Source: an uncultured Rivularia sp. | GTDB lineage: Bacteria; Cyanobacteriota; Cyanobacteriia; Cyanobacteriales; Nostocaceae | Direction: 5' to 3' | Length of the DNA stretch: 64,000 bases | Assembly: GCA_963665115.1 (NCBI GenBank) | Contig: OY762007.1 | Location: forward strand, 1,088,001 to 1,152,000 | Shown: positions 51,558 through 64,000 of the stretch, in pieces | Position numbering within the stretch: position 1 is the stretch's first letter | How the letters are laid out: every line of letters starts with the position of its first letter | Program-made: the position numbers and the translations under genes | Notes under the pieces: model-generated | Database searches by the model: none | Told to the model about the DNA's origin: nothing | Seen by the model: only the letters and a program-made list of their open reading frames with translations

Positions 51558-52477
51558 ATAAAAATTACAGAAATTGCGGGCAAGAAAATAATCCTACAAG
51601 AGCCTGCATTATGCTTATTTTACCTTAGTATAGCGTATCAATTTATTTAGTAAAAGCGCGAGCAATTGTATTATTTAAGACTTAATAAACTGTTCTAAAT
51701 ATAAACATCAAAATATATTTTAGTGTTGCGATAATTACTAACAATCTCAGTGTCAATCTGGTAATTTAGCTCTGGTTTGATATTTATAATTTGCCATGAT
51801 TTATTTTAACTTCAATTAAAATATCGCTGTTACAGTAAGCTCACAACCCTAATGATAGTAGTCCTGCTGGCTTGTTTTTTCTATCTTAGACTATAAAAGC
51901 TAAAAGCTTGACACCCAACTAGTTTTAAATAGCATAGTTAATGGAGAAAAATCGTCATTACTTTAGTGCAAGAATTCAAATAGTAGATATATAATATCAA
52001 ACTCAGTAATTTTTCTCTCTTCGCAAAAAATATGAAAATTATTTATACTTTTGAGGTAAACAAGTTACTAAAGTTACTTTTATTACAAAATACTAACGAT
52101 TATTTTTTCTAATTTTATAAATTTATTTGCTCGATATTTTTTAATGTAATGTAATTTTATTTTGCTGGCTTTGTCCTTTGATACCCCGTCGCGATAATTA
52201 TCGGATGCTTCTTATACTCGGTGTAAATCAAAAATTATAAATTTTGAATTGGAATTGGGCATAGGGGATTGAGCATTGGATATAACAACGCACCATGAAA
52301 GCCGTCACATCGTTACTAATGGTCTGTTTCATAAAATATGATAGGTATGTAGTGAGGACTTTAGTCCTAAATCTAAGCGATAAATCGCTTACTACGAACC
52401 TTTTTACCGATCGTAATTAATGTGGTTGAGTACTGGGAACGAACTTTCAGAGGCTCTACCTCAAGTTAATTAAATTA

Positions 52478-53096
52478 ATGACTCATTTTACAGCTTTAGT
52501 TATTTTACCTCCAGATACAAATGATATTCAAGTGAAAGTCGGAGAAACTTCTTCTTCCTTATTATTCAGAGCTAGATGTTGAACCATATAAGGAATATTT
52601 GAACCAAGAAGATTTTCAAAGGGAAATTAAGCAGCTATCAAATTTGCCAAAAGATGAAATTTATCAAATGGCAATAGAATATGAGCTTTTAGGTGAAAAT
52701 ATAATCGAATATTTGGCTAAGATCAATCTCTATTGGGATGAAGAAGATGTAGCTGGTGTTGACGAATATGGGGAATATCAAATAACAACTTATAATCCTC
52801 AAAGTAAATGGGATTGGTATAGATTTATTGAAACAGAACCCAGGGAAAGTGAAACACCTATTAATTATCCGTGTAAAGTAAAAGATTTACCTGATATTGT
52901 TCCCTATGCTCTCATAACTCCCGATGGTAAATGGTATGAATTAGGGTTTGATTTAGGTATACAGGCTTTTATGAGAAATCACTTGAATAGCAATACAAAT
53001 ATTGCTGAAGGAGAAATAAACTGGGAATTGAAAGTTAAAAAAATTATTGCTTTCTATTCAGATTTTCTTGCTGTTGCTTTAAATTGTCATATCTAA
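52478..53096 (+). CDS. Hypothetical protein (apparent +1 frameshift near 52545-52547)
   Basis: MTHFTALVILP... joins LLLPYYSELDVEPY...YNPQSKWDWY...ALITPDGKWYE...ALNCHI after removing one A. Confidence 0.65.
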
Positions 53097-53111
53097 AATT
53101 TACTTTTTCTC

Positions 53112-53639
53112 TCAACACTTTATCCCGTAAACAAAAGGCTCCCTTAATCCATAAACAACTTTCTTCCGAATTATTTCCCGTACTCTATAGGAATTAAACA
53201 GCCATTTTAAACTGTGTGAATAAATAAACCATTTATCTTCACTATATTCTATCGGGAAATTAGCTAGACGATCAAACTTTAAAAAACTCAAAGCATCCAT
53301 CATTTTAATAACAATTGGATTAGCACTCGAAGCATATATATGCTTTCGTCTTTCTAAACCTTTTTCTACAGATGCGTAAAATAAAGATTTACCAATTCCT
53401 CTTCCTCTAAATTCTTCTAAAACAAATAAGGCTGCTATTTTACACCATTTCTCATTTAGATCGTAATTTAAGCAGACTCCCGCTAAGTTACCATTTTCAT
53501 CTTCAGCAGCCACAATGTTTTTAGCTGTCAACCATTCTTTCAAGGTATAGCCCATGATGTATGGTGTTTTTTTGATTCTTTGAATTAGTAATTTAGCTTC
53601 AGCTTCACTTATTTGCCTTTGGATTATTCGGAAAATCAT
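53112..53639 (-). CDS. GNAT-family N-acetyltransferase
   Basis: LFVLEEFRGRGIGKSL acetyl-CoA binding motif. Confidence 0.85.
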   Translation of the reverse strand: MIFRIIQRQISEAEAKLLIQRIKKTPYIMGYTLKEWLTAKNIVAAEDENGNLAGVCLNYDLNEKWCKIAALFVLEEFRGRGIGKSLFYASVEKGLERRKHIYASSANPIVIKMMDALSFLKFDRLANFPIEYSEDKWFIYSHSLKWLFNSYRVREIIRKKVVYGLREPFVYGIKC

Positions 53640-53651
53640 TCGTAAGTCCTG

Positions 53652-55766
53652 TTAACTTGTAAGTATCGTCAAAACATTAAAAATAAATAAGATTACCATC
53701 AGATAAGTATTAAATTGACAGCGAATAATTTTTAATAAAACCTTGAAAAGATTGTTGTCTGCTTCAAATTTACTTGTATTTGCCTGAAGCTTTGATAAGC
53801 AATAGGAAGTTTTAGTTAATGCTTGTTGATAGAGCGAGAAATTCCACACAATTATAATTAGACAACTACTCAAACTAACTAAGTAGGCTAAAATTGTCCA
53901 TTTTTGACCGCTGGAAGACATGGTTTCAAGTCCATATCTAAATTCAAAGTTTCTCACAATTTCTATAATAATCAAAATACTAACATATGGAGCAATGTCA
54001 TTAATAAATCCCCATGTATATTTTGTATAATTTTGGTTGATAATTTTGACGATTTGAGATGTTTTATCTTGAAGTATATTAAAATTATTTTCTATTTCCT
54101 TTAATCGATAATTTAATTTGATGGTTCGTTTCAGACTTTGATTGTAGGCTTGGAAAGCAGCATAAACGCTAACAAAGCAAAAAGGTACGGCTACGAAGAA
54201 GTATAAAATAAAAGAGCAAGGAAAATATAAAATTATTGGTAAATGATAATCTCTAAATTTTTGATTGCTGTTTTCATATCCAGAAATCTGATATGGTAGT
54301 GAAAAAATTATATGATAAAGTAAAAATGAAAATATAAAAATCGACAAAGATATTGCTGCAAAACGGTATATTTTTGCAGATTTGGCTTGACTTCGTAAAA
54401 TCTCTACAGCTTCTTTTCTCCATACAATACCAACTAAATAAAAGTGGTTGATTAGTAAAAAAGCGCTGCGAATAAATTCAATTAAGCTTCCATATTCCCC
54501 AAAATCTCGTATCCACGGTTCGCTGCCAGATAAATGATAAGCCGATCCAAGGGAGATACCGCAGATAATTAATAAAATTCCGTAGTAGCTTAAGATTTTA
54601 GCTAGATATGCAGTCGATGGAGGTAATCTAGGTTGTGTATCTAATTCTTTCCACTCCTGCTGAAAAAACCAAAATGAACCTAACTGTTTATCGATCCAGT
54701 TTTGATTGAAAATTTCTTGATAAATACGGTTAGCTATTTTCAGCTTTCCTTGCTGTTTAACTACTAATCCAGAAAGTCTTAATTCTACTTCTTCGTAACT
54801 ATTAGTAGTTTCGATTTCACCTTGACAATAAATTATTTGATACAGTTCTATTAATATTACAGCACGTTGTTTATCGTGAAGCAGTCGATCGCGTATTGTT
54901 CTTAAATGTTCTGGCTCATCCCGTGCTTCCCAGCTTTCAATGAGGTGGGTTTGCACTAACTCGGTAATATCGGGGTTTTCGGTTCCCGCGTCAACTACTA
55001 ATTGACATAATTTTTGAGTTAGAAACGGTTGTCCCCCCGTCCATAAAAGCACTTCTGATAAAGTTTTTTCGGGATTATCTACTTTGTTTGCAAATCCTTT
55101 TGTTAAAGATAATTTGGCTTCTTCTAGTTTAAAACCTTTTAACTCAATTGCTTGACCGATATTAAAAGGAGTGCGTCTTTTGTCTTCAATTAAAGTTGAT
55201 GGTGTTGCTACTCCGAGCAAGCAAAAAGTAAGACGGTTGTATTTGGGATTGTCGGCGCGTTGGTTGTAGCAACTGCGAATAAATGCGAAAAAATCATCGG
55301 TTGGAAAATCTAAACTAATAACGCTATCAATTTCGTCAATGAAGATGACAATGTTTTCCGAAATCGATTCTAATAATACTTCGTTGATGATTTCACTTAC
55401 TCGCTGTACCCCCGAAAGAAAATCGCGATCGCGCCACCATTGTTTCCAGTCAACTTTAATCGAACGTCCAAAAGTTCTAAATAAGCGATAGGCAATACCT
55501 TTGTACCATTGTTCTGAGGTAACTTGGCTGCCAGTTGCGGTTAAATCAATTGCAGCACAAGCAGTACCGTTAGCTTGCAACCTGTTCATAGTGCGGACTC
55601 GCAAGCTCGATTTACCCATTTGACGCGAGTTGAGTACGTAGCAAAATTTTCCAGCTTTCAAACTGCGATAAAGTTCGTCATCTGCTTTTCGTTCAACATA
55701 AGTAGGATCGTTTGCTGGTAAACTTCCCCCTTGATATTTATAAGCGTAGGTTGGTTCTTCTGTCAT
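53652..55766 (-). CDS. AAA_35 (AAA-like) ATPase with C-terminal multi-TM domain
   Basis: YVERKAD, NSRQMGKSS, IFIDEID, TPFNIG and GGQPFLTQ motifs; about 6-7 hydrophobic helices at the C-terminus. Confidence 0.85.
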   Translation of the reverse strand: MTEEPTYAYKYQGGSLPANDPTYVERKADDELYRSLKAGKFCYVLNSRQMGKSSLRVRTMNRLQANGTACAAIDLTATGSQVTSEQWYKGIAYRLFRTFGRSIKVDWKQWWRDRDFLSGVQRVSEIINEVLLESISENIVIFIDEIDSVISLDFPTDDFFAFIRSCYNQRADNPKYNRLTFCLLGVATPSTLIEDKRRTPFNIGQAIELKGFKLEEAKLSLTKGFANKVDNPEKTLSEVLLWTGGQPFLTQKLCQLVVDAGTENPDITELVQTHLIESWEARDEPEHLRTIRDRLLHDKQRAVILIELYQIIYCQGEIETTNSYEEVELRLSGLVVKQQGKLKIANRIYQEIFNQNWIDKQLGSFWFFQQEWKELDTQPRLPPSTAYLAKILSYYGILLIICGISLGSAYHLSGSEPWIRDFGEYGSLIEFIRSAFLLINHFYLVGIVWRKEAVEILRSQAKSAKIYRFAAISLSIFIFSFLLYHIIFSLPYQISGYENSNQKFRDYHLPIILYFPCSFILYFFVAVPFCFVSVYAAFQAYNQSLKRTIKLNYRLKEIENNFNILQDKTSQIVKIINQNYTKYTWGFINDIAPYVSILIIIEIVRNFEFRYGLETMSSSGQKWTILAYLVSLSSCLIIIVWNFSLYQQALTKTSYCLSKLQANTSKFEADNNLFKVLLKIIRCQFNTYLMVILFIFNVLTILTS

Positions 55767-55844
55767 TAATTAATATATTTATTTTTATAGAATAAACAGA
55801 TGTTTGTAGTACTCCGCCACATTAATTTTAAAGGGTAAAAAACT

Positions 55845-55960
55845 TGCATCTTGCACCAATGTCAGAAACCCGGTTTATTGCTGGTTAGATTAAAGGATAA
55901 TAATTTTTTCACGCATAGAAACCGGGTTTCTTTAGGCTTGATGAGAATGGTGCAAGATAT
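55845..55960. mobile_element. MITE-like element with ATCTTGCACCA terminal inverted repeats
   Basis: atcttgcacca...tggtgcaagat with an internal aaacccggttt/aaaccgggttt stem; related copies at 61268-61556. Confidence 0.65.
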
Positions 55961-55976
55961 CAATGAAAATCAATAT

Positions 55977-57296
55977 CTACGCTAACAAGCAATCGTGTAA
56001 ATACAAGCGATACAAATTACAGCGAGGTTCTATTTTGTTACCGCACCAATGCACTAATCCCATGCTGTGGAGTTTAAATGCTTCCTCCGAATCAATTCTT
56101 ACTGGCTGTTTTTCTTCAACTACATTTCTCATCGCTGCTATTAATTTAGAATCTTGCTGTAAATCCTGACTAATTTTTCGTAAATGATTTCTATACAGTC
56201 CAGCTTCAGTAGCTGCTGTTTGCAAAAATTCATCTATTTTTACGTATGGCTGGTTTTTAATATTAGTAAATGCTTTATGCAAAAGATAGGGATGTCCGCC
56301 TACTATTGCCATCAGTTTCTCAATTAAAATACAATCTTTATCGAGTTCGTATTGTTGGGCTAAATGCTGAACTTGCTCAATATTAAACTCGGGTAATTCA
56401 ATTGGTAATCCAACATTAAAAGGCGATTGGTTGATCTGTAAGGGAATATAAACTTCAGTTGAGTGGGCTACTATCAAACGCAATTTTTTCCAATCATCGA
56501 GAAACTTTGCATCTTCATACCAAGAGCGCAATAATCCGAAAAAGTCTGCTGCAACTTCTTGATACTTAAAAACTCTATCTACGTTATCTAAACCTAACAC
56601 TAAGGGAGTATCTATATTCGCTAAAATATAATCTTCAAAATAAGCGGTACAGTTATCATTACTGCTAGAATCTGCATCCCAGAAATCGGCTATATTATTT
56701 TTCAGTTTTAACCGTCTGCTGATGCTGCTACACAACCAACGTAACAATTTATCCAAATTTTTGATAGTACATTCATCCGCTTGCAATAGATTTAAATGTA
56801 CTGTTTTATAACTCTGCTTTGTCGCTGAATCAAAAATCTTGTTCATCAAACAAGTTTTGCCCATTTTCCAAGGAGCTTTGATCCGAATTAGCGCCCCTGG
56901 CTGCGAAATCTCTTGATAACACATAGATTCCACGGGAGGACGATTTATATAACTATCAGTAATAATTAACGATTCTTGCTTAGTAAAATTATCTGGTAAC
57001 GGTAAATTTTCCTTGGGAATAGAATTATCTTGCAAGCACCGTTTTAATGCTTCCTTGAAATTATTTTTTTTAACTTTTTCTCCCAAAGCTCCTGAAAGTA
57101 GCTTCCACAATTTAGGAGCCACATCTTGACTTATATAACTTAAGGTGTAGTTATTTTCCTCGGAAATCTTACCATAATCCTGTTTGTGCCAAGCCCCCCG
57201 GATGATTGCCGTTTCAACATCCGTTAAATTTCTCTGCGTTTTAGAGTAGATAAGATTATTCGCAATTTTTAGCGCTTCATCTAATACAAAGTCCAT
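55977..57296 (-). CDS. AAA_35 ATPase with N-terminal HTH-like domain
   Basis: N-terminal LTDVE.AIIRGAW..QDY..IS...APKLWKLLS; IKAPWKMGKT, LGLDNVD, SPFNVG and GGHPYL motifs. Confidence 0.82.
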   Translation of the reverse strand: MDFVLDEALKIANNLIYSKTQRNLTDVETAIIRGAWHKQDYGKISEENNYTLSYISQDVAPKLWKLLSGALGEKVKKNNFKEALKRCLQDNSIPKENLPLPDNFTKQESLIITDSYINRPPVESMCYQEISQPGALIRIKAPWKMGKTCLMNKIFDSATKQSYKTVHLNLLQADECTIKNLDKLLRWLCSSISRRLKLKNNIADFWDADSSSNDNCTAYFEDYILANIDTPLVLGLDNVDRVFKYQEVAADFFGLLRSWYEDAKFLDDWKKLRLIVAHSTEVYIPLQINQSPFNVGLPIELPEFNIEQVQHLAQQYELDKDCILIEKLMAIVGGHPYLLHKAFTNIKNQPYVKIDEFLQTAATEAGLYRNHLRKISQDLQQDSKLIAAMRNVVEEKQPVRIDSEEAFKLHSMGLVHWCGNKIEPRCNLYRLYLHDCLLA

Positions 57297-57370
57297 TTTT
57301 ATAGATTTTCTCACATAGGGAACCGACATTTATCCGCAGCAATACATCTAAGTAAAGCTCTAACTTTATA

Positions 57371-57420
57371 TACCTCAATTTACCTGAAGATTCCTGAAAA
57401 CCTCTGAAAGTTCCCGCATC
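57371..57420. promoter_or_regulatory. 10-bp-phased direct repeats in divergent promoter
   Basis: tacctcaatt/tacctgaaga/ttcctgaaaa/cctctgaaag/ttcccgcatc; CTGAA at 57384, 57394 and 57404. Confidence 0.5.
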
Positions 57421-57531
57421 ACAGTCAAATTACTTAGGTTAAAGTACTCCACAATTTATCTCAAGTTGTAAAATTATTAACCGTGCATACTTATAGATGT
57501 AAGCCAAACACACCAAGCGTGAGTTGAAAAA

Positions 57532-59100
57532 ATGAAACGATTGATAAGTCTTACTAGTGCGATCGCAGTTTCTACATTAAATGTAGCTGCTAGCGTACCA
57601 GTATCTGCACAAAGCAGTATTCAAGGGCCAATTAAAGAATTTGAACGTCCGATAAGTATCGATAAAGTAGAAGCTCCTATAAAAGGATTTGAACGTCCCA
57701 ATCCTGGTGAAGTAAGAATCAATAAAGCGCCTATAAATAAAAAGATTGAAAGCGTTCAAGTTGATAAGAGCCAAATTCAAATTATTAAGAAAAAGCCTAC
57801 TCAATTCAAAGCTTTTGACGTTAAAGATCCACAAACGGGTAAAGCAATACCTCCAAGTACAATACTAACGTTACCTAATGGAAAAAAGGTAAACGCTGGA
57901 GAATATTACGCTCAATTAAACAAGCTAGAAAGAGAATTTAACCAAATTGGTTATTCTTTACGTCAGCCTGCGGAAGAAGTTACCATCCAAAGTTCTACTA
58001 TTAATAAGCAGGAGTTACAAAAGCAGCAACAGCTTCTGCAAAAAACTCCAGAAAAAATCGACCGCAGTGTTGAGATTCAAAAGCAATTGGAGCCAAGTGA
58101 GGTTCTTAGAACTATTAATAAAGGACCAATACAGCAAATCGATCCTAAATTGCCAGGGGGAGTAATTAATCCGAGTCAACCACAACTCGATATTAAACCT
58201 CAAAGACCTCAAATAGAAAATCCTCAGATTAATCCGGGTACTATAAAGCCAATTAATCCACAACTCAAGCAAACCAAAGGTAACTTCAAACTAGCTCAAG
58301 CTTCCGGCTCTCGTACATATACCAGAACTTGGAATAAACAGGTTGGTAGAAGAAGTACTTTCGCTGCTTATCTCAGAGGAAAACTACAGTTAAAAGGCTC
58401 CAGAACTTATACCAGAGCTAATGCTGAAGGTAGTACTGGTGGCTATGCATTCAATCGCAATTTTGAATTAGCACGCGGCACAGCAACAGTATATGCACCC
58501 GTATCCGGTAGAGGTACAGTCAACACTAGTCTATACGTCGCCAGACAAAACGTCTATAATTTCCAAACCGGATTTGCAAATCGTTTTTCTAAGGGAGATT
58601 CCTTTTCTCGCTCCTTAGATTTCGGAGTTGCCAATATTAGATTCTTCGTCGGTCCAATTCCGATGAGTGCCAGGTTTGGCGTTCGAGGAAGTGCAGGCTT
58701 CAGATATAATATGGCGGCTTCGGGTGCATACAGATATGCTTATGCACGATTGAATCCCTTTGTCAATTCTAGAGCTTATGGACAGGGTGGTGCTGACATC
58801 GTAGTTGGTGGTGCTGGAGTAGGTGCTAACTTATTATTGCTCAAAGATAATCTTAACGCTTACGCTTCAGCTAGAGTCGGTTTTGCTTCAGGTAATCGCG
58901 CATATCTACAAAGTTACTACTCTGTTTACAACGATATGGAAGCTCTGAGCGGTAAAGCTTATGCTTACGCTTACGTCTACGTTCCCAGATTTGGTATTCC
59001 ACCCTGGAGAAAGAAGCAGTGGAATTGGAACATCTTTGACTGGACTGGCTTTAAGCAAAGAGGTTACTTACTCCGTGGCTCGAACAGAGTCTACTTTTAA
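57532..59100 (+). CDS. Secreted protein with P/Q/I-rich linker and amphipathic beta-sheet C-terminal domain
   Basis: Signal peptide (VSA-Q); PIK(E/G)FERP twice; Gly/aromatic/Arg-rich alternating strands in the last ~260 aa. Confidence 0.75.
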   Translation: MKRLISLTSAIAVSTLNVAASVPVSAQSSIQGPIKEFERPISIDKVEAPIKGFERPNPGEVRINKAPINKKIESVQVDKSQIQIIKKKPTQFKAFDVKDPQTGKAIPPSTILTLPNGKKVNAGEYYAQLNKLEREFNQIGYSLRQPAEEVTIQSSTINKQELQKQQQLLQKTPEKIDRSVEIQKQLEPSEVLRTINKGPIQQIDPKLPGGVINPSQPQLDIKPQRPQIENPQINPGTIKPINPQLKQTKGNFKLAQASGSRTYTRTWNKQVGRRSTFAAYLRGKLQLKGSRTYTRANAEGSTGGYAFNRNFELARGTATVYAPVSGRGTVNTSLYVARQNVYNFQTGFANRFSKGDSFSRSLDFGVANIRFFVGPIPMSARFGVRGSAGFRYNMAASGAYRYAYARLNPFVNSRAYGQGGADIVVGGAGVGANLLLLKDNLNAYASARVGFASGNRAYLQSYYSVYNDMEALSGKAYAYAYVYVPRFGIPPWRKKQWNWNIFDWTGFKQRGYLLRGSNRVYF

Positions 59101-59265
59101 AGGAAGTAGGGGGTAGGGAAGAGTTAGGAGTTATGAGTAGCAAGTAGTAAGTAGTAAGTAAACTATCATCGCTACTCGTTACTCGCTACTTTAATAATCC
59201 CCTTGTCCCCCATCTCCCCCTCTACCCCATCTCCCCCCCCTCTCCCCCTCTCCCCCTCTAAAACT

Positions 59266-61251
59266 ATGTCTTCCAATACTCATCGACAAATAAAAAGATT
59301 ATCTCAACGCTATAAATCGATTTTAATTATTTCTGGTTTACTGATTTTTGCCGTTCCGGGAGCAGTTGTTTACGGTAAACAATTCAATCAATTTGGTAAT
59401 GTTTTAACTTCTAGAGTTTTAAATCAACAAACATTACCAGCTTACCAATTTACTCCCGGTCAGCGTTTAGTTTACAATGTTGATTATCAAAATCATTCTC
59501 AGTCTGACCTCAGAGTTTTATTTCAAGATATAAAAACTAATAATTCTGCTGCCCCAGCGGGAGTTAATACTTTTACAAACGACTTTCAAGTTAGCCTTCA
59601 AGGTCAGTTAGTTATAACCGTTTTAGAACAAAAAAAAGATAAAATACTTGTTTCCTATAGTTTACCAAACTCCGCAGTAAAAATTACTTCTAGCGGACAA
59701 GAAGCGGTAGAGCAAGGGCAACTCATCCAAGGTGATTTAAAACAAGATATTTTTGCCGAGCTTAACCCTCAAGGTAAAGTAATTTCTGTTAGCTTTGACC
59801 AAAATGTCAGCGATATTGCTCAAAATTTTGCTCGTACTCTTTTAGGTATTAGTCAATTCGTCACCCCTAGTTCCGACCGCAATCCTAGCAACTGGGAAAC
59901 TAAAGAAGATGACCCCAACGGTAAGTATATTGCTCGTTACGAAAGTAGTTGGGGAAAATTTGAAAAAACCAAACTGCGTTATTTAGAATCAGTTAGCGGG
60001 AAAAAACCAGATGCATCAGATGTAAAGACTACAATCAAACCTGAAGGTAAATTAACCGCTAATTTTAATCTTAAAAACGGATACTTAACTTCTCTCCAAG
60101 GTACCGAGTCACAACAAATAATTATTTCTAAAAAGAATGTCGGACAAGTAAAAACTGATTTGGATATGACTTATGTCAGCCAAACTGTTTTAAATCCCCA
60201 ACAATTAACTCAACTGCAAAATGCTAGAACAGAACGCGATCGATTAGCACAGTCGGTAGCACTTTCTGCAACTCCCTCGGAAGCAGAAACAGAAGCCAAG
60301 ATTCAGCGTCAAGAATTAGGAGATGCTACCTTAAAAACCTTGCTTGCTGACTTAGAGAAAGCTGAAGCGTCATCAGATAGTAATCAAAATCATACTCCTT
60401 TATATCTTAAGTTAAAAGCTTTAGTATATTTACAGCCAGAGACGAGTCAAACTTTAGGAAAACTATTACTTGAAGCCGATGCTCAAAGTTTGACAATGCA
60501 AATTCTATCGGGAGCATTAAGTGCTGTAGGTAATTCTCAAGCACAAACCGCACTTGTTAATACTATTAATACTCGCAGTCAAGATTGGGATGCAATGTAT
60601 GTATTAGTTCCTAGTTTGGGTTCGGTAAATAATCCTACTCAAGAAACAGAAAATATTTTAAATCAATTAGCATTTAATTCTAAGGACGAACGGATTGCTT
60701 CTACCGCTCAACTGGCTTTAGGAACAGTAGCGTATAACTTAACTCAAACATCGCCGAATAGAGCCAATCAAATTGTCAAACAGTTTGCACAAAAGCTGTC
60801 AAAAACAGAATCCGAAGAACAAACTAGACAATATTTATTAGTTTTAGGAAATACTGGTTCTGCAAACGCATTTGATACCATAGTTTCATTTACAAAAGCT
60901 TCCGCACCGAAAATTCGTGGTGCTGCAACATCAGCATTACGGTTAATTGATAACAAGCAAGTTGACAAAGTAATTACAACAATATTAACTGGAGATGCAG
61001 ACGATAGCGTTAGATTAGAAGCCGCAACAACATTAGGATACCGAGAAATAAATCCAGAAACTTTTAAAATCCAAAAGCAGGCATTTACCTCAGAAAAATC
61101 AGTTACAGTTCGCTTAGGGCTATTAAGAAATTTGTGGCAAGTTCGCGAACAGTTTCCCGAAGTCAAGAAACTTGCTGAAAAAGCCGCTCAAAATGATGCT
61201 TCTCCCGAAGTTAAAGAAGCAGCAGCAAGTATTCTTGAGACAGATTTTTGA
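59266..61251 (+). CDS. Exported beta-domain + HEAT-like helical protein resembling the vitellogenin/MTP N-terminal lipid transport module
   Basis: Signal-anchor; FTPGQRLVYNVDY, GKVISVSF...QNFARTLLGISQF, EDDPNGKYIARY, LALGTVAYNL, YLLVLGNTG and VRLEAA. ATG at 59266. Confidence 0.7.
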   Translation: MSSNTHRQIKRLSQRYKSILIISGLLIFAVPGAVVYGKQFNQFGNVLTSRVLNQQTLPAYQFTPGQRLVYNVDYQNHSQSDLRVLFQDIKTNNSAAPAGVNTFTNDFQVSLQGQLVITVLEQKKDKILVSYSLPNSAVKITSSGQEAVEQGQLIQGDLKQDIFAELNPQGKVISVSFDQNVSDIAQNFARTLLGISQFVTPSSDRNPSNWETKEDDPNGKYIARYESSWGKFEKTKLRYLESVSGKKPDASDVKTTIKPEGKLTANFNLKNGYLTSLQGTESQQIIISKKNVGQVKTDLDMTYVSQTVLNPQQLTQLQNARTERDRLAQSVALSATPSEAETEAKIQRQELGDATLKTLLADLEKAEASSDSNQNHTPLYLKLKALVYLQPETSQTLGKLLLEADAQSLTMQILSGALSAVGNSQAQTALVNTINTRSQDWDAMYVLVPSLGSVNNPTQETENILNQLAFNSKDERIASTAQLALGTVAYNLTQTSPNRANQIVKQFAQKLSKTESEEQTRQYLLVLGNTGSANAFDTIVSFTKASAPKIRGAATSALRLIDNKQVDKVITTILTGDADDSVRLEAATTLGYREINPETFKIQKQAFTSEKSVTVRLGLLRNLWQVREQFPEVKKLAEKAAQNDASPEVKEAAASILETDF

Positions 61252-61267
61252 TTGGTTTATAGTATTT

Positions 61268-61556
61268 ACATCTTGTACCAATTTTAATATTGCCGGGGAA
61301 TAGAATTAAAAGTCTCATAGCTAAAGTTGTCTTTAGACGGCTGGGTAAAATATTTAGTGCGTTTCAAGGTACTTTGTCTATGAGCCTGGGAATTTATTCC
61401 AAGGCGGTGTTGCGAATGGTGCAAGATGTCAGTTTCTATTTACATCTTTCAGCAGTGTCAGAAACCCGGTTTTTTGCTGGTTAAATTGCGAGATAATAAT
61501 GTTTTCACGAATAGAAAGCCGGTTTCTTTCAGCTGATTGATAATGCTGCAAGATAT
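61268..61556. mobile_element. Two adjacent MITE-like elements with ATCTTG(C/T)ACCA-type ends
   Basis: acatcttgtacca...tggtgcaagatgt, then a copy of the 55845-55960 element. Confidence 0.55.
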
Positions 61557-61636
61557 AAATAGTGAGGAATGCCTCTAAATCCGAGTGATAAATCGCTTAC
61601 TACAAACCTTAATTAACTATCAAAACCGATTGCAAT

Positions 61637-62020
61637 TTATCTTCCTTCACAACTCCTCACCTTCATCATCTCTGCTAACAGAGTAAATAAAACAATCCCG
61701 CAAAAATCCGCAGCTAAATCAACTAAATCGAAGCTACGGTTGGGTGAAAACATTTGCAAGCATTCTTCGATTAATACAAAAACGCTAATAATAATCGGTA
61801 CTAAAGGCAGGGAAAAATTTAAAATACTTATTTTACGTTTTTTAAATGCTAAATGTCCCAAAAAAGCCGAAAATCCCATTAATAGAAAATGTAAAATGGT
61901 GTCGTAATAAGGAAACTGCTTTATTTCATTGGGAATAATCTTTAAATAAGCTGATATAGATATTGATATAATCACTCCGATGTAAAACCAAAAGGCGATT
62001 ACCCAGTTACGATTAGTCAT
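61637..62020 (-). CDS. VanZ-family membrane protein
   Basis: DTILHF, EECLQMFSPNRSFDLVDLAADFCG motifs. Confidence 0.85.
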   Translation of the reverse strand: MTNRNWVIAFWFYIGVIISISISAYLKIIPNEIKQFPYYDTILHFLLMGFSAFLGHLAFKKRKISILNFSLPLVPIIISVFVLIEECLQMFSPNRSFDLVDLAADFCGIVLFTLLAEMMKVRSCEGR

Positions 62021-62224
62021 TACAAATTATGTATATAAAATAAAAAAGCGTCTGTTGATAGCTCCAAGCATAACAAACGCTTTTACGTAAATACCGATTA
62101 AAGCAAGTAGTAAAACAATAAATATTTACCTAGGGTAAGCGGCAAGTTCGCGCAATTTTGCTTTCAACTGTTCCACTTCTGCTTCTGCTTGTTCAGCAGG
62201 TTGCGAATTCAATCCAAAATCGTT

Positions 62225-62488
62225 CTACCCTCCTTGCTGATTCGCTTGCTCTTGCAGCCAAGAATCTACTGGTTGTCCATCTTTGCGCTTTAACTCAATT
62301 TCAACAACCATTACTTCTTTTGAACCGGGAGGTGCCGGTTTTTTGTGAAAAAGAATATCGTAATCAGCCGGATTTTGATTGCGCTCTTTTAACCAATCCT
62401 GCACTTTTGTTGTTGCAAAAAACGATTGCCCTTGCTCAAACATCGAGGTAATCTGCATTTGCAGGTTATAAGGATTTAGTTTGCCCAT
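62225..62488 (-). CDS. Conserved cyanobacterial hypothetical protein
   Basis: 87-aa ORF with normal composition and an AAAGG upstream. Confidence 0.7.
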   Translation of the reverse strand: MGKLNPYNLQMQITSMFEQGQSFFATTKVQDWLKERNQNPADYDILFHKKPAPPGSKEVMVVEIELKRKDGQPVDSWLQEQANQQGG

Positions 62489-62557
62489 TGTAAAGCCGCC
62501 TTTGTAAAGAAATTTTTAGTTTGGGTATTATCCCAGTTATTTTTATATAATAATTAA

Positions 62558-62677
62558 TGTACGGCAGGGAGTGCCGGAATCAACGCTTGAGGAGCTAGTT
62601 GCAAGACTAGGATAACACCGATACTAGAATGTTCGGTGTGCCCAAGAAGCTAAACCCTTGTGGTTTATGCACTTCAA
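62558..62677 (+). ncRNA. IS200/IS605 right-end / TnpB omega-RNA-like scaffold without tnpB
   Basis: acggcagggagtgccggaatcaacgcttga (tnpB-tail-like TAGSAGINA), several stems, subterminal hairpin taaacc/ggttta and terminal TCAA; TATAAT at 62546-62551. Confidence 0.55.
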
Positions 62678-62783
62678 AATTTTTAAGGATGGGCAGGCTT
62701 TTGTCTGCCCCCTAATATTTTTCAACTATTCCTCCATAGCACTTGTAAAACATTAATTTTATAGTGTTGTTTAACTTCAATCG

Positions 62784-63019
62784 TAAGAAGTCCCACACCT
62801 ATCTGTAAGAAGGTGTTGGGATGAATTAGTACCCTGGTTTATGGTATTATCAAGAATGTAGGTGTAATCCAATTAAATGCAGAAATGCAGCCTATAAACA
62901 CAAAAACAATCTGATAAAAAGTCCCTAGGGCGTAGGGCTTGAAAGCTCGGTCAATGTTCTCATAGAGGAGTCACCGAGAAGCCTACATCATAATCTGTGA
63001 TTTGATGTAGGTACGTCAC
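62784..63019 (+). mobile_element. Non-autonomous IS200/IS605-type mini element
   Basis: Left hairpin cccacacct...aggtgttggg; right hairpin cctacatca...tgatgtagg followed by TCAC; no transposase or tnpB ORF. Confidence 0.6.
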
Positions 63020-63460
63020 TAAAGAAATGGTGTTTTCACATGGTTGTAGACGTAGCAGTGCTACGTCTCTACAGCAGTTTTGTGTTTAATACAAAATATA
63101 GAGATGAAATTTTATATGCCTGATTTCGTAAAAGGAATCGGGTTTTTTAACTTGAAATAATATTTGTTTTTATAATTTATGTTTTCAAAATAAAAAATAT
63201 AAACTGTATTGCAAATAAAGAATTAACAAATAAAACCTTGAAATTAGCGGATAAATTGTCTAAAGCACATAATACACACCTTTAACCTCTAAATCTTGAC
63301 CTTTAACCTTTAACCTTTGACCTAAAATTATGTGGTTGTAAATAATTTTGTAGCTAGGGAATATTTTGCATAAAAGCTGTCAAAGATGACCCAGAATAAA
63401 ATAGAGCGAAATAGATTGTTTTTCAGCAATTCAAAATTTAGCTGCGCTCTTTTTTAATAT

Positions 63461-64000
63461 ATGGTATCAAAACTGTTCAGAAACATACGAAAAATTACCA
63501 TTCCGGCGGTTGATTCTATCAGTAAATTAACTATTACGAGGGTAAATAAATTATCTCGTAGAACTAAAAAAATTACTGCTATCACCTCCTTAGTAATGGT
63601 AATAATACTTGCCGGAAACTCAGTTTCGGCACAGCTAGCTCCATTTGGGCCATTGAGTTCAGTAAGCGTTCCCAGACCGGATAATATCAACAATTTCATT
63701 AAAGACAAAACATCTGCGATCGCGCTGGGCAAAACTCTGTTTTGGGATATGCAGGTGGGTAGCGATGGCGTGCAATCCTGCGCTAGCTGTCACTTTAATG
63801 CCGGTGCGGATAGTAGATCGAAGAATCAGATTAATCCAGGTTCTAACAATAGTTTCGATATTGCAGGGGCACCGAACTATCAATTACGGCCGGGAGATTA
63901 TCCATTTCATCGGTTAGAAAATCCTGATGACCGTTCTTCTACCGTGCTAAAGAGCGTAGATGATATTACGGGTTCTCAAGGTGTATTTAGAGCCAAGTTT
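63461..64000 (+). CDS. Di-haem cytochrome c peroxidase / MauG family (partial, runs off window)
   Basis: MVSKLF...signal/TM...ALGKTLFWDMQVGSDGVQSCASCHFNAGAD (CxxCH). Confidence 0.88.
   Translation, partial: MVSKLFRNIRKITIPAVDSISKLTITRVNKLSRRTKKITAITSLVMVIILAGNSVSAQLAPFGPLSSVSVPRPDNINNFIKDKTSAIALGKTLFWDMQVGSDGVQSCASCHFNAGADSRSKNQINPGSNNSFDIAGAPNYQLRPGDYPFHRLENPDDRSSTVLKSVDDITGSQGVFRAKF

Follow-up and report, generated by a model that had tools for sequence, protein, structure and literature searches.

Do bacteria possess the design of large lipid transfer proteins (LLTPs) seen in MTP, vitellogenin and apoB, divided between two genes? The question is raised by a stretch of 64,000 nucleotides (the window) from an uncultured Rivularia sp. 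(Nostocaceae; GCA_963665115.1, contig OY762007.1, positions 1,088,001-1,152,000, forward strand), in which an initial annotation, made from the letters alone, had proposed two neighbouring open reading frames (ORFs) as a split LLTP. Gene 1 (522 residues) would supply lipid-binding sheets and gene 2 (661 residues) the LLTP front half. Both ORFs are intact, co-oriented and separated by 165 bases, just as had been described, and all 13 peptides quoted from them are present in the order given. We find that gene 2 is homologous to the N-terminal barrel and helical domain of LLTPs, and that the pair very probably represents a genuine and widespread form of the LLTP design in two chains. Judged by single-chain build and by disulfides, the pair falls short of full LLTP membership, and its function as a lipid carrier is predicted from models.

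A direct Pfam scan of the gene 2 protein returns HEAT_2 only (E 1.4e-13, last helices), and a sequence search matches MTP at E 0.03. The Vitellogenin_N family (PF01347), which the initial annotation had expected, is instead found through homologues and a genome search. Among 40 homologues selected from 51 hits for the gene 2 alignment, 30 match PF01347 at E<=0.01; several do so over model positions 36-557, barrel included, with 45-55 bits (curated cut-off 24), and the best reach 54-55 bits over positions 79-557. In the genome-wide search gene 2 itself scores 43.2 bits against the same cut-off, in the helical part only. Given that helical-only matches to PF01347 also occur on ordinary HEAT proteins (4 further places in the genome and 2 of 14 controls), the barrel was tested separately. 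The gene 2 profile matches lipovitellin at E 8.9e-6 and MTP at E 7e-4 through the helical domain, while a profile of the barrel alone matches lipovitellin 90-155 weakly but colinearly (E 0.074), with the motifs of the initial annotation in register. Bacterial clusters in the ESM Atlas score 0.96-0.97 to gene 2 and carry PF01347 on 40-75% of their members; hence, the LLTP domain label is already visible in databases.

Structure comparison places gene 2 among the LLTPs along its whole length. With the AlphaFold2 model (predicted local distance difference test score, pLDDT, 85.5), Foldseek ranks 1-11 are all LLTPs (MTP, lipovitellin, apoB and vitellogenin; E 2e-19 to 2.7e-8), led by MTP at E 2e-19 and lipovitellin at E 1.2e-14, and the first HEAT protein ranks below all 11. 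The alignments to MTP and lipovitellin span about 630 columns at 14-15% identity, with template modelling (TM) scores of 0.47-0.52, and the likeness to the LLT module exceeds chance. The absence of a lipovitellin-type barrel had been set beforehand as grounds for abandoning the proposal. The barrel was recovered: VIA-align superposes gene 2 residues 59-341 on the isolated apoB barrel 43-314 (9bd8_A; Z 17.9, root-mean-square deviation (rmsd) 5.0, 243 aligned), and residues 61-653 on lipovitellin 17-624 (Z 17.7, rmsd 7.1, 547 aligned). HEAT proteins reach Z 20 against gene 2, covering only its helical half (residues 337-661). Since gene 2 aligns to MTP 24-615, and given the limits of the MTP lipid domain (PMC6717300), gene 2 ends where that domain begins, as the initial annotation had anticipated. 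Its assignment of the E-D-x-x-G-x-C motif holds in part: the motif is in register, but the cysteine is replaced by Tyr221, a position with Tyr in 37 of 40 rows and no Cys among the residues listed.

The missing sheets would be supplied by gene 1. Its model (pLDDT 82.2, predicted TM score 0.77, built from 143 sequences) shows a conserved domain at the N-terminus and, after a disordered linker, a domain at 261-521 that we read as six short strands (261-348) followed by six long ones (351-521), alternating between hydrophobic and polar residues throughout the homologues. For the MTP lipid domain (604-884), two sheets of six strands each are described, the C-sheet and an A-sheet of twice its length (PMC6717300). 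The sole Foldseek matches of gene 1 at E<=0.001 are two MTP chains (7.5e-5 and 3.6e-4; rmsd 10-12). VIA-align places residues 261-519 on MTP 613-877 over 217 residues (Z 5.7, rmsd 5.2), the longest alignment among the 50 rows listed, with a Z tied with those of outer-membrane barrels at 5-6.4; residues 263-346 align to bee vitellogenin 774-889 (Z 3.7). Gly374, in the turn between long strands 1 and 2, is conserved in 124 of 143 homologues, and the conserved Gly746 of MTP occupies the equivalent turn (PMC6717300). For gene 1, sequence scans against Pfam, NCBIfam and the PDB yielded no usable match. Matches to Med28 and a CDI-toxin (E 0.013-0.018, under the cut-off), and an MspA match in 1 of 21 homologue rows, were dismissed as chance. 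The ESM Atlas returned only unnamed clusters for the sheet domain, all below 0.9.

To the front of its sheets gene 1 adds a domain without counterpart in animal LLTPs. It is confidently folded, single copy in the genome and present in 119 of 143 homologues (missing from loci L022 and L024-L026), matches no family, and is a candidate lid or brace for the pocket. Other additions vary from relative to relative: 8 of 27 long homologues scanned bear Ig, PAN, crystallin, CARDB or TIG domains. Partners at L015:2939-5764, L016:2679-5840, L020:2561-5893 and L009:3-971 have a 350-400-residue C-terminal repeat extension, propeller-like in looks, for which no firm Pfam match was found; in L015, L016 and L020 it comes after the last strand. 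A very distant partner (L069:5967-9371, minus strand; 1135 residues stop to stop), paired with a distant gene 2 homologue, has its sheet-like part at the C-terminal end and no Pfam match.

Do the two chains fit together? The complex modelled from residues 57-661 of gene 2 and residues 256-522 of gene 1 reaches a score of 0.74, whereas the best control reaches 0.02, in line with the partnership first proposed; the mark for this score is reached by 116 of 157 solved pairs and 2 of 215 mismatched pairs. The runs agree in at least 71% of contacts, with a partner pLDDT of at least 72. In the predicted complex, the 363-381 hairpin of gene 1 contacts the central helix of the gene 2 barrel (187, 191) and residues 217-218, and the 336-347 hairpin contacts helices 476-529, including the invariant L483, G528 and N529. 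Only 1 of 21 hydrophobic-face positions of the short sheet lies in the interface; for the long sheet, with a near/far boundary that was set after viewing the interface, the counts are 1 of 27 in the far half and 17 of 23 in the half near the barrel. As modelled, this distribution is the arrangement described for MTP. The inward faces hold 29-40% Ala and Gly, 7-10% aromatic and about 1% charged residues.

A further clue to a link between gene 1 and the LLTPs comes from the alignment of 22 LLT motifs (N1-N22) from 47 animal proteins in supplement 2 of PMC1783640. By eye, the early blocks map in order onto gene 2, and the blocks of the N20-N22 page map in order onto gene 1 (about 338, 374-377 and 409-429). 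A 21-residue pattern from the last LLTP block, P-x-[VILF]-x8-G-h-[DNE]-x5-[ASTV]-G, whose spacing need not reflect contiguity in the animal proteins since the supplement joins blocks end to end, occurs in 41 of 143 gene 1 homologues, against a mean of 0.1 and a maximum of 2 in 50 shuffles. Among 5989 long ORFs of the genome it is found in 2, of which one is gene 1 (at residue 409), and it resembles the vitellogenin and apolipocrustacein rows more than those of MTP. A G-x-P pattern occurs in 80 of 143 homologues versus 16 shuffled, and all three motif patterns stand in order in 24 of 143.

The pairing expected by the initial annotation holds in other genomes and across phyla. At 22 of the 26 genome loci located with the gene 2 alignment, the partner domain lies in an ORF adjacent to gene 2, and the remaining four (L005, L007, L009 and L019) are affected by contig ends or gaps. 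L009 starts within the tail of a partner; the L019 genome has, elsewhere, a partner and the first half of gene 2 followed by a scaffold gap; and L005 and L007 begin inside gene 2, the L005 genome having a partner close to the end of another contig. Searches for a partner in the genomes of L007 and L009 found none. The sheet gene usually comes first, the order being reversed in 3 of the 22 (L024-L026). Viewed from the partner side, gene 2 is next in 11 of 14 metagenome loci, some of which are near-duplicates of genome loci, and the other three stop at a contig edge; 3 of 3 further paralogues are likewise paired. By record title the loci come from cyanobacteria, Acidobacteria, Nitrospirae, Deltaproteobacteria, Planctomycetota, Oligoflexia, Rubrivivax and metagenome-assembled genomes labelled Clostridia. 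The pair is frequent in Myxococcota and Bdellovibrionota-type lineages, and a search of 50%-identity representatives finds 2367 relatives of the sheet domain at E<=0.001. L016, L017 and L020 are from metagenome-assembled genomes labelled Eubacteriales or Clostridia; should these labels be correct, the pair is present in cells that have no outer membrane.

Both genes are single copy in the Rivularia genome; among named records the nearest belong to Rivularia and Calothrix (90-91% identity). They occur together in the same 5 of 61 relatives; in genome G419 both are missing and the flanking genes abut at the same site. A partner search in a sample of 400 other cyanobacterial genomes found none. 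The module would be an accessory unit that is gained and lost as one, outside core envelope building. The pairwise identities of the two genes correlate (rho 0.80; 300 pairs, 25 loci) and 9 of 22 tree splits are common to both, a co-divergence that could partly reflect kinship alone. The two remain separate ORFs, in place of the single polypeptide of the LLTP superfamily: neither the 150 partner representatives nor the 53 LLT-chain hits included a fused form, and a search for longer fused proteins gave two matches, both short and local (10% and 3% of the query) and in unrelated architectures, which is weak evidence. No third gene conserved over distant loci was found, and no thioredoxin-fold gene among the scanned neighbours.

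Among the known systems closest to the pair is MTP (human large subunit; 6I7S, 8EOJ; PF01347 and PF19444). Both have a barrel and a helical domain, and for the pair the models predict the further parts of MTP, a six-strand short sheet and a six-strand long sheet with a glycine turn between long strands 1 and 2; gene 2 covers MTP 24-615 and the gene 1 sheet domain 613-877, and the long sheet docked in the barrel and the helical clamp are predicted for the pair. The pair differs from MTP in having two chains, about 15% identical to it in the front half and 7-11% in the sheet part; it is free of disulfides, a client comparable to apoB is not known, the sheet chain carries a further N-terminal domain with a linker, and the chains are predicted to be exported from a bacterium. 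The pair also appears to lack a PDI partner, whereas the MTP family proper is an obligate heterodimer with protein disulfide isomerase (PDI) in the endoplasmic reticulum. Vitellogenin and lipovitellin (1LSH, 9ENR, 9ENS) share with the pair the 547 residues aligned to gene 2 and the run of motifs, which by eye starts on gene 2 and has its last blocks on gene 1 (a pattern count was made for one of them). Unlike them, the pair has no DUF1943/DUF1944 profile match, vWD domain or phosvitin, and a far smaller sheet region, and it would lack a large funnel-shaped cavity. The apoB-100 beta-alpha-1 region (9BD1, 9BD8) has a barrel that matches the one of gene 2; the long amphipathic belt of apoB-100 is absent from the pair, which is left with no means of wrapping a lipoprotein particle. 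Bacterial HEAT_2, PBS-lyase and alpha-Rep proteins resemble the last helices of gene 2, but have no N-terminal barrel and no linked sheet partner.

Taken together, we consider it very probable that the pair itself shares the LLTP architecture. That it is a split bacterial LLTP relative whose exported, mutually binding chains hold and move a lipid or other hydrophobic molecule outside the cytoplasm appears reasonably likely from the models. In such a complex gene 2 forms the barrel and helical clamp, for which homology is established, and gene 1 would supply the short and the long six-strand sheets. The tip of the long sheet is predicted to plug into the pit of the barrel, the helical domain to grip the polar faces of both sheets, and the leftover hydrophobic faces to close on one another into an MTP-like pocket for about one lipid. 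Both chains would leave the cytoplasm by Sec export; the N-terminal helix of the LLT chain probably anchors that chain to the outer face of the inner membrane, unless cleavage sets it free, and the complex would take up and release hydrophobic cargo in the periplasm or sheath. The N-terminal domain of gene 1 may brace or cap the pocket, the job of PDI in MTP. In relatives, the appendages that vary (Ig, PAN, crystallin or propeller-like) may direct the complex to surfaces or glycans. A lipoprotein-particle system, which the initial annotation had offered alongside a lipid carrier, has less in its favour than a small carrier like MTP, since in size the partner sheet domain (about 265 residues) corresponds to that of MTP and not to apoB.

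Several results weigh against a split LLTP that carries lipid. The sheet layout is MTP-like and its best Foldseek match is MTP, but its Z values stay below 8: a wide search of 48161 chains with gene 1 returned none reaching Z 8, and placed MTP 41st (Z 4.5, 217 aligned) behind 40 rows that are mostly outer-membrane barrels. Neither PF19444 (MTP_lip_bd) nor PF09172 (Vit_open_b-sht) matches anywhere in the genome at E<=10, the gene 1 homologues have no Pfam family common to their members, and gene 1 matches none of the LLTP sequences in the PDB. The conserved barrel disulfide of MTP (C174-C194; PMC6717300) is absent from both proteins, each with a Cys count of zero. The motif patterns were picked after inspection of the partner; by eye, the late one fits only 14 of 47 animal rows and 0 of 6 MTP rows, while the N20-like one is weak (106 of 143 versus 67 shuffled) and absent from the gene 1 of the window. 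As for the complex, split-gene halves tend to pass such a prediction through likeness to solved structures, so that it shows likeness and does not prove binding; its score may stem from likeness to the MTP and lipovitellin structures. The predicted interface is no more conserved than the rest in the LLT chain (p 0.41) and barely more so in the partner (p 0.04). Finally, a scan of 50 ORFs that flank or adjoin the pair at other loci showed no recurring gene of a lipid pathway.

The last point would suit a heterodimer of the same split architecture without lipid cargo, in which the sheets pack together and the whole serves as a scaffold displaying adhesive or glycan-binding modules on the surface or sheath. 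The varied PAN, crystallin, Ig, CARDB and TIG domains of partner relatives, including that of locus L023, speak for such a role, as does a patchy presence, the partner being found in 0 of the 400 other cyanobacteria sampled. Nevertheless, the inward faces are rich in small residues, which should fit a cavity better than a packed core, and the partner in the window, like many others, has no appended module; we regard a cargo-free scaffold as unlikely. Somewhat more improbable still is a role in competition or predation, with the sheet chain as a membrane-inserting or lipid-extracting protein and the LLT chain as a chaperone or protective partner that shields its hydrophobic faces until release. 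Long amphipathic hairpins, targeting-like appendages of variable kind and the abundance of the pair in Myxococcota and Bdellovibrionota-type lineages are in keeping with it, but the partner shows good conservation instead of polymorphism, divergence in one gene keeps pace with that in the other, and under the predicted clamp the inner hydrophobic faces are left facing one another, as they are in MTP. Locus L023 (7852-9696, a Rubrivivax record) has a ShlB/FhaC-type POTRA and barrel secretion gene after the pair; a transporter there would favour this role, yet it is a single case, the sole secretion gene among the scanned neighbours.

The initial annotation had itself named an independent outer-membrane barrel with no interface to gene 2 as a reading of gene 1 that would undo its proposal. 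In such a case gene 1 would be porin-like and gene 2 a periplasmic HEAT-repeat protein that merely shares the operon. The top Z values of gene 1 do come from outer-membrane barrels (5-6.4), its strands alternate and it terminates in Phe. These matches are partial, however, spanning just 125-197 residues at Z <8, and the last residue is Phe in only 22 of 143 homologues, Trp in 8 and Tyr in 6, so that a conserved terminal aromatic beta-signal is lacking; in three partners the C-terminal extensions described above run past the last strand. The two sheets are of unequal length, the complex is predicted well above its controls, and the gene 2 barrel matches that of apoB. We therefore judge the porin explanation very improbable, and retain the split LLTP relative as the best account of the pair.

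The features of the module are collected in the table below. The ATG of gene 2 at 59266 agrees with the starts of close homologues; an alternative upstream TTG at 59203 sits inside the low-complexity repeat of the spacer. The spacer consists of purine-rich and pyrimidine-rich short repeats with weak inverted pairing, and similar stretches recur many times across genomes of the genus. Promoter and terminator scans stayed at chance level (8 versus 11.2, and 6 versus 3.5), with no terminator above chance in the spacer, and an Rfam scan of 52000-64000 gave no match. As had been proposed, each protein has an N-terminal hydrophobic segment of the kind expected for export, which from the residues alone would be a cleavable signal in gene 1 and a signal or anchor in gene 2. 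Such a segment is present in 33 of 36 LLT-chain and 111 of 132 partner homologues, counting only those that start with Met. A lipoprotein signal for the pair was rejected, a lipobox being found in just 2 of 36 LLT-chain and 3 of 132 partner homologues.

Table. Features of the two-gene module (positions are those of the window)
Feature	Position	Strand	Basis
Gene 1, sheet chain, 522 residues; predicted exported partner and supplier of two lipid-binding sheets	57532..59100	+	
Gene 1 predicted cleavable Sec signal peptide, residues 1-26, end V-S-A	57532..57609	+	hydropathy; cleavage site inferred
Gene 1 N-terminal alpha/beta domain, about residues 85-200, conserved	57784..58131	+	
Gene 1 Pro/Gln-rich disordered linker, residues 206-257	58147..58302	+	pLDDT <50
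Gene 1 six short amphipathic strands, residues 261-348; likely C-sheet equivalent	58312..58575	+	
Gene 1 six long amphipathic strands, residues 351-521; likely A-sheet equivalent	58582..59094	+	
Gene 1 G374-P375-I376-P377 turn and 409-429 motif, in the long-strand region	within 58582..59094	+	
Intergenic spacer, short low-complexity repeats	59101..59265	strandless	
Gene 2, LLT chain, 661 residues; homologue of LLTP N-terminal barrel and helical domain (Vitellogenin_N, PF01347)	59266..61251	+	
Gene 2 hydrophobic helix, residues 19-36; putative signal peptide or uncleaved membrane anchor	59320..59373	+	
Gene 2 N-terminal beta-barrel with central helix, about residues 59-330	59440..60255	+	
Gene 2 two-layer HEAT-like helical domain, about residues 337-660; invariant L-G-N motif (G528, N529)	60274..61245	+	

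Divergent from the module lies a pair of AAA_35 STAND-type NTPase genes (53652-55766 and 55977-57329, both minus strand), one with a short N-terminal extension that by eye is perhaps a helix-turn-helix, the other with a hydrophobic C-terminal half. The STAND pair also flanks the module in five other cyanobacterial loci, Brasilonema among them, and could regulate it; yet G419 retains the STAND pair without the module. At 63461-64000 (plus strand) the window ends within a gene for an exported protein of the di-haem cytochrome c peroxidase/MauG family, of which it contains the start. Neighbours of an ordinary kind are a VanZ-like gene at 61637-62020 and a GNAT gene at 53112-53639. Elsewhere, similar-looking exported ORFs with no Pfam match stand directly 5' of the pair at L067:464-1621 and L068:2097-3359, paralogous loci of one Silvanigrellaceae genome that holds three pairs.

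In the open-access literature, subscription journals being outside our coverage, we found no report of bacterial LLTP homologues. The main text of PMC1783640 does not mention bacteria or prokaryotes, and that of PMC12547972, on split gut-microbe homologues of human proteins, contains none of the terms looked for, although its supplements could list MTTP. LLTPs are called animal lipid transporters, their rise being tied to multicellularity (PMC12214520); this design, of which only animal forms have been described, is likely to have a bacterial counterpart made of two chains. More tentatively, and with somewhat more doubt than confidence, we suggest that the two-gene bacterial module is the ancestral LLTP form, a working lipid carrier over many phyla, whose genes were fused, barrel and helical part first and sheets second, to give animal MTP, vitellogenin, apolipophorin and apoB. 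With 2367 clusters at 50% identity on the side of its sheet chain, a large family of bacterial proteins built to the same plan in two chains would shift the origin of the LLTP fold, with gene fusion as a simple route to it. Given that MTP is a drug target and hard to express, the pair would also offer a small, cysteine-free, PDI-independent model of lipid loading in MTP-type pockets. For the bacteria themselves, it would represent an envelope lipid-handling system that is now concealed under the labels 'HEAT repeat protein' and 'hypothetical protein'.

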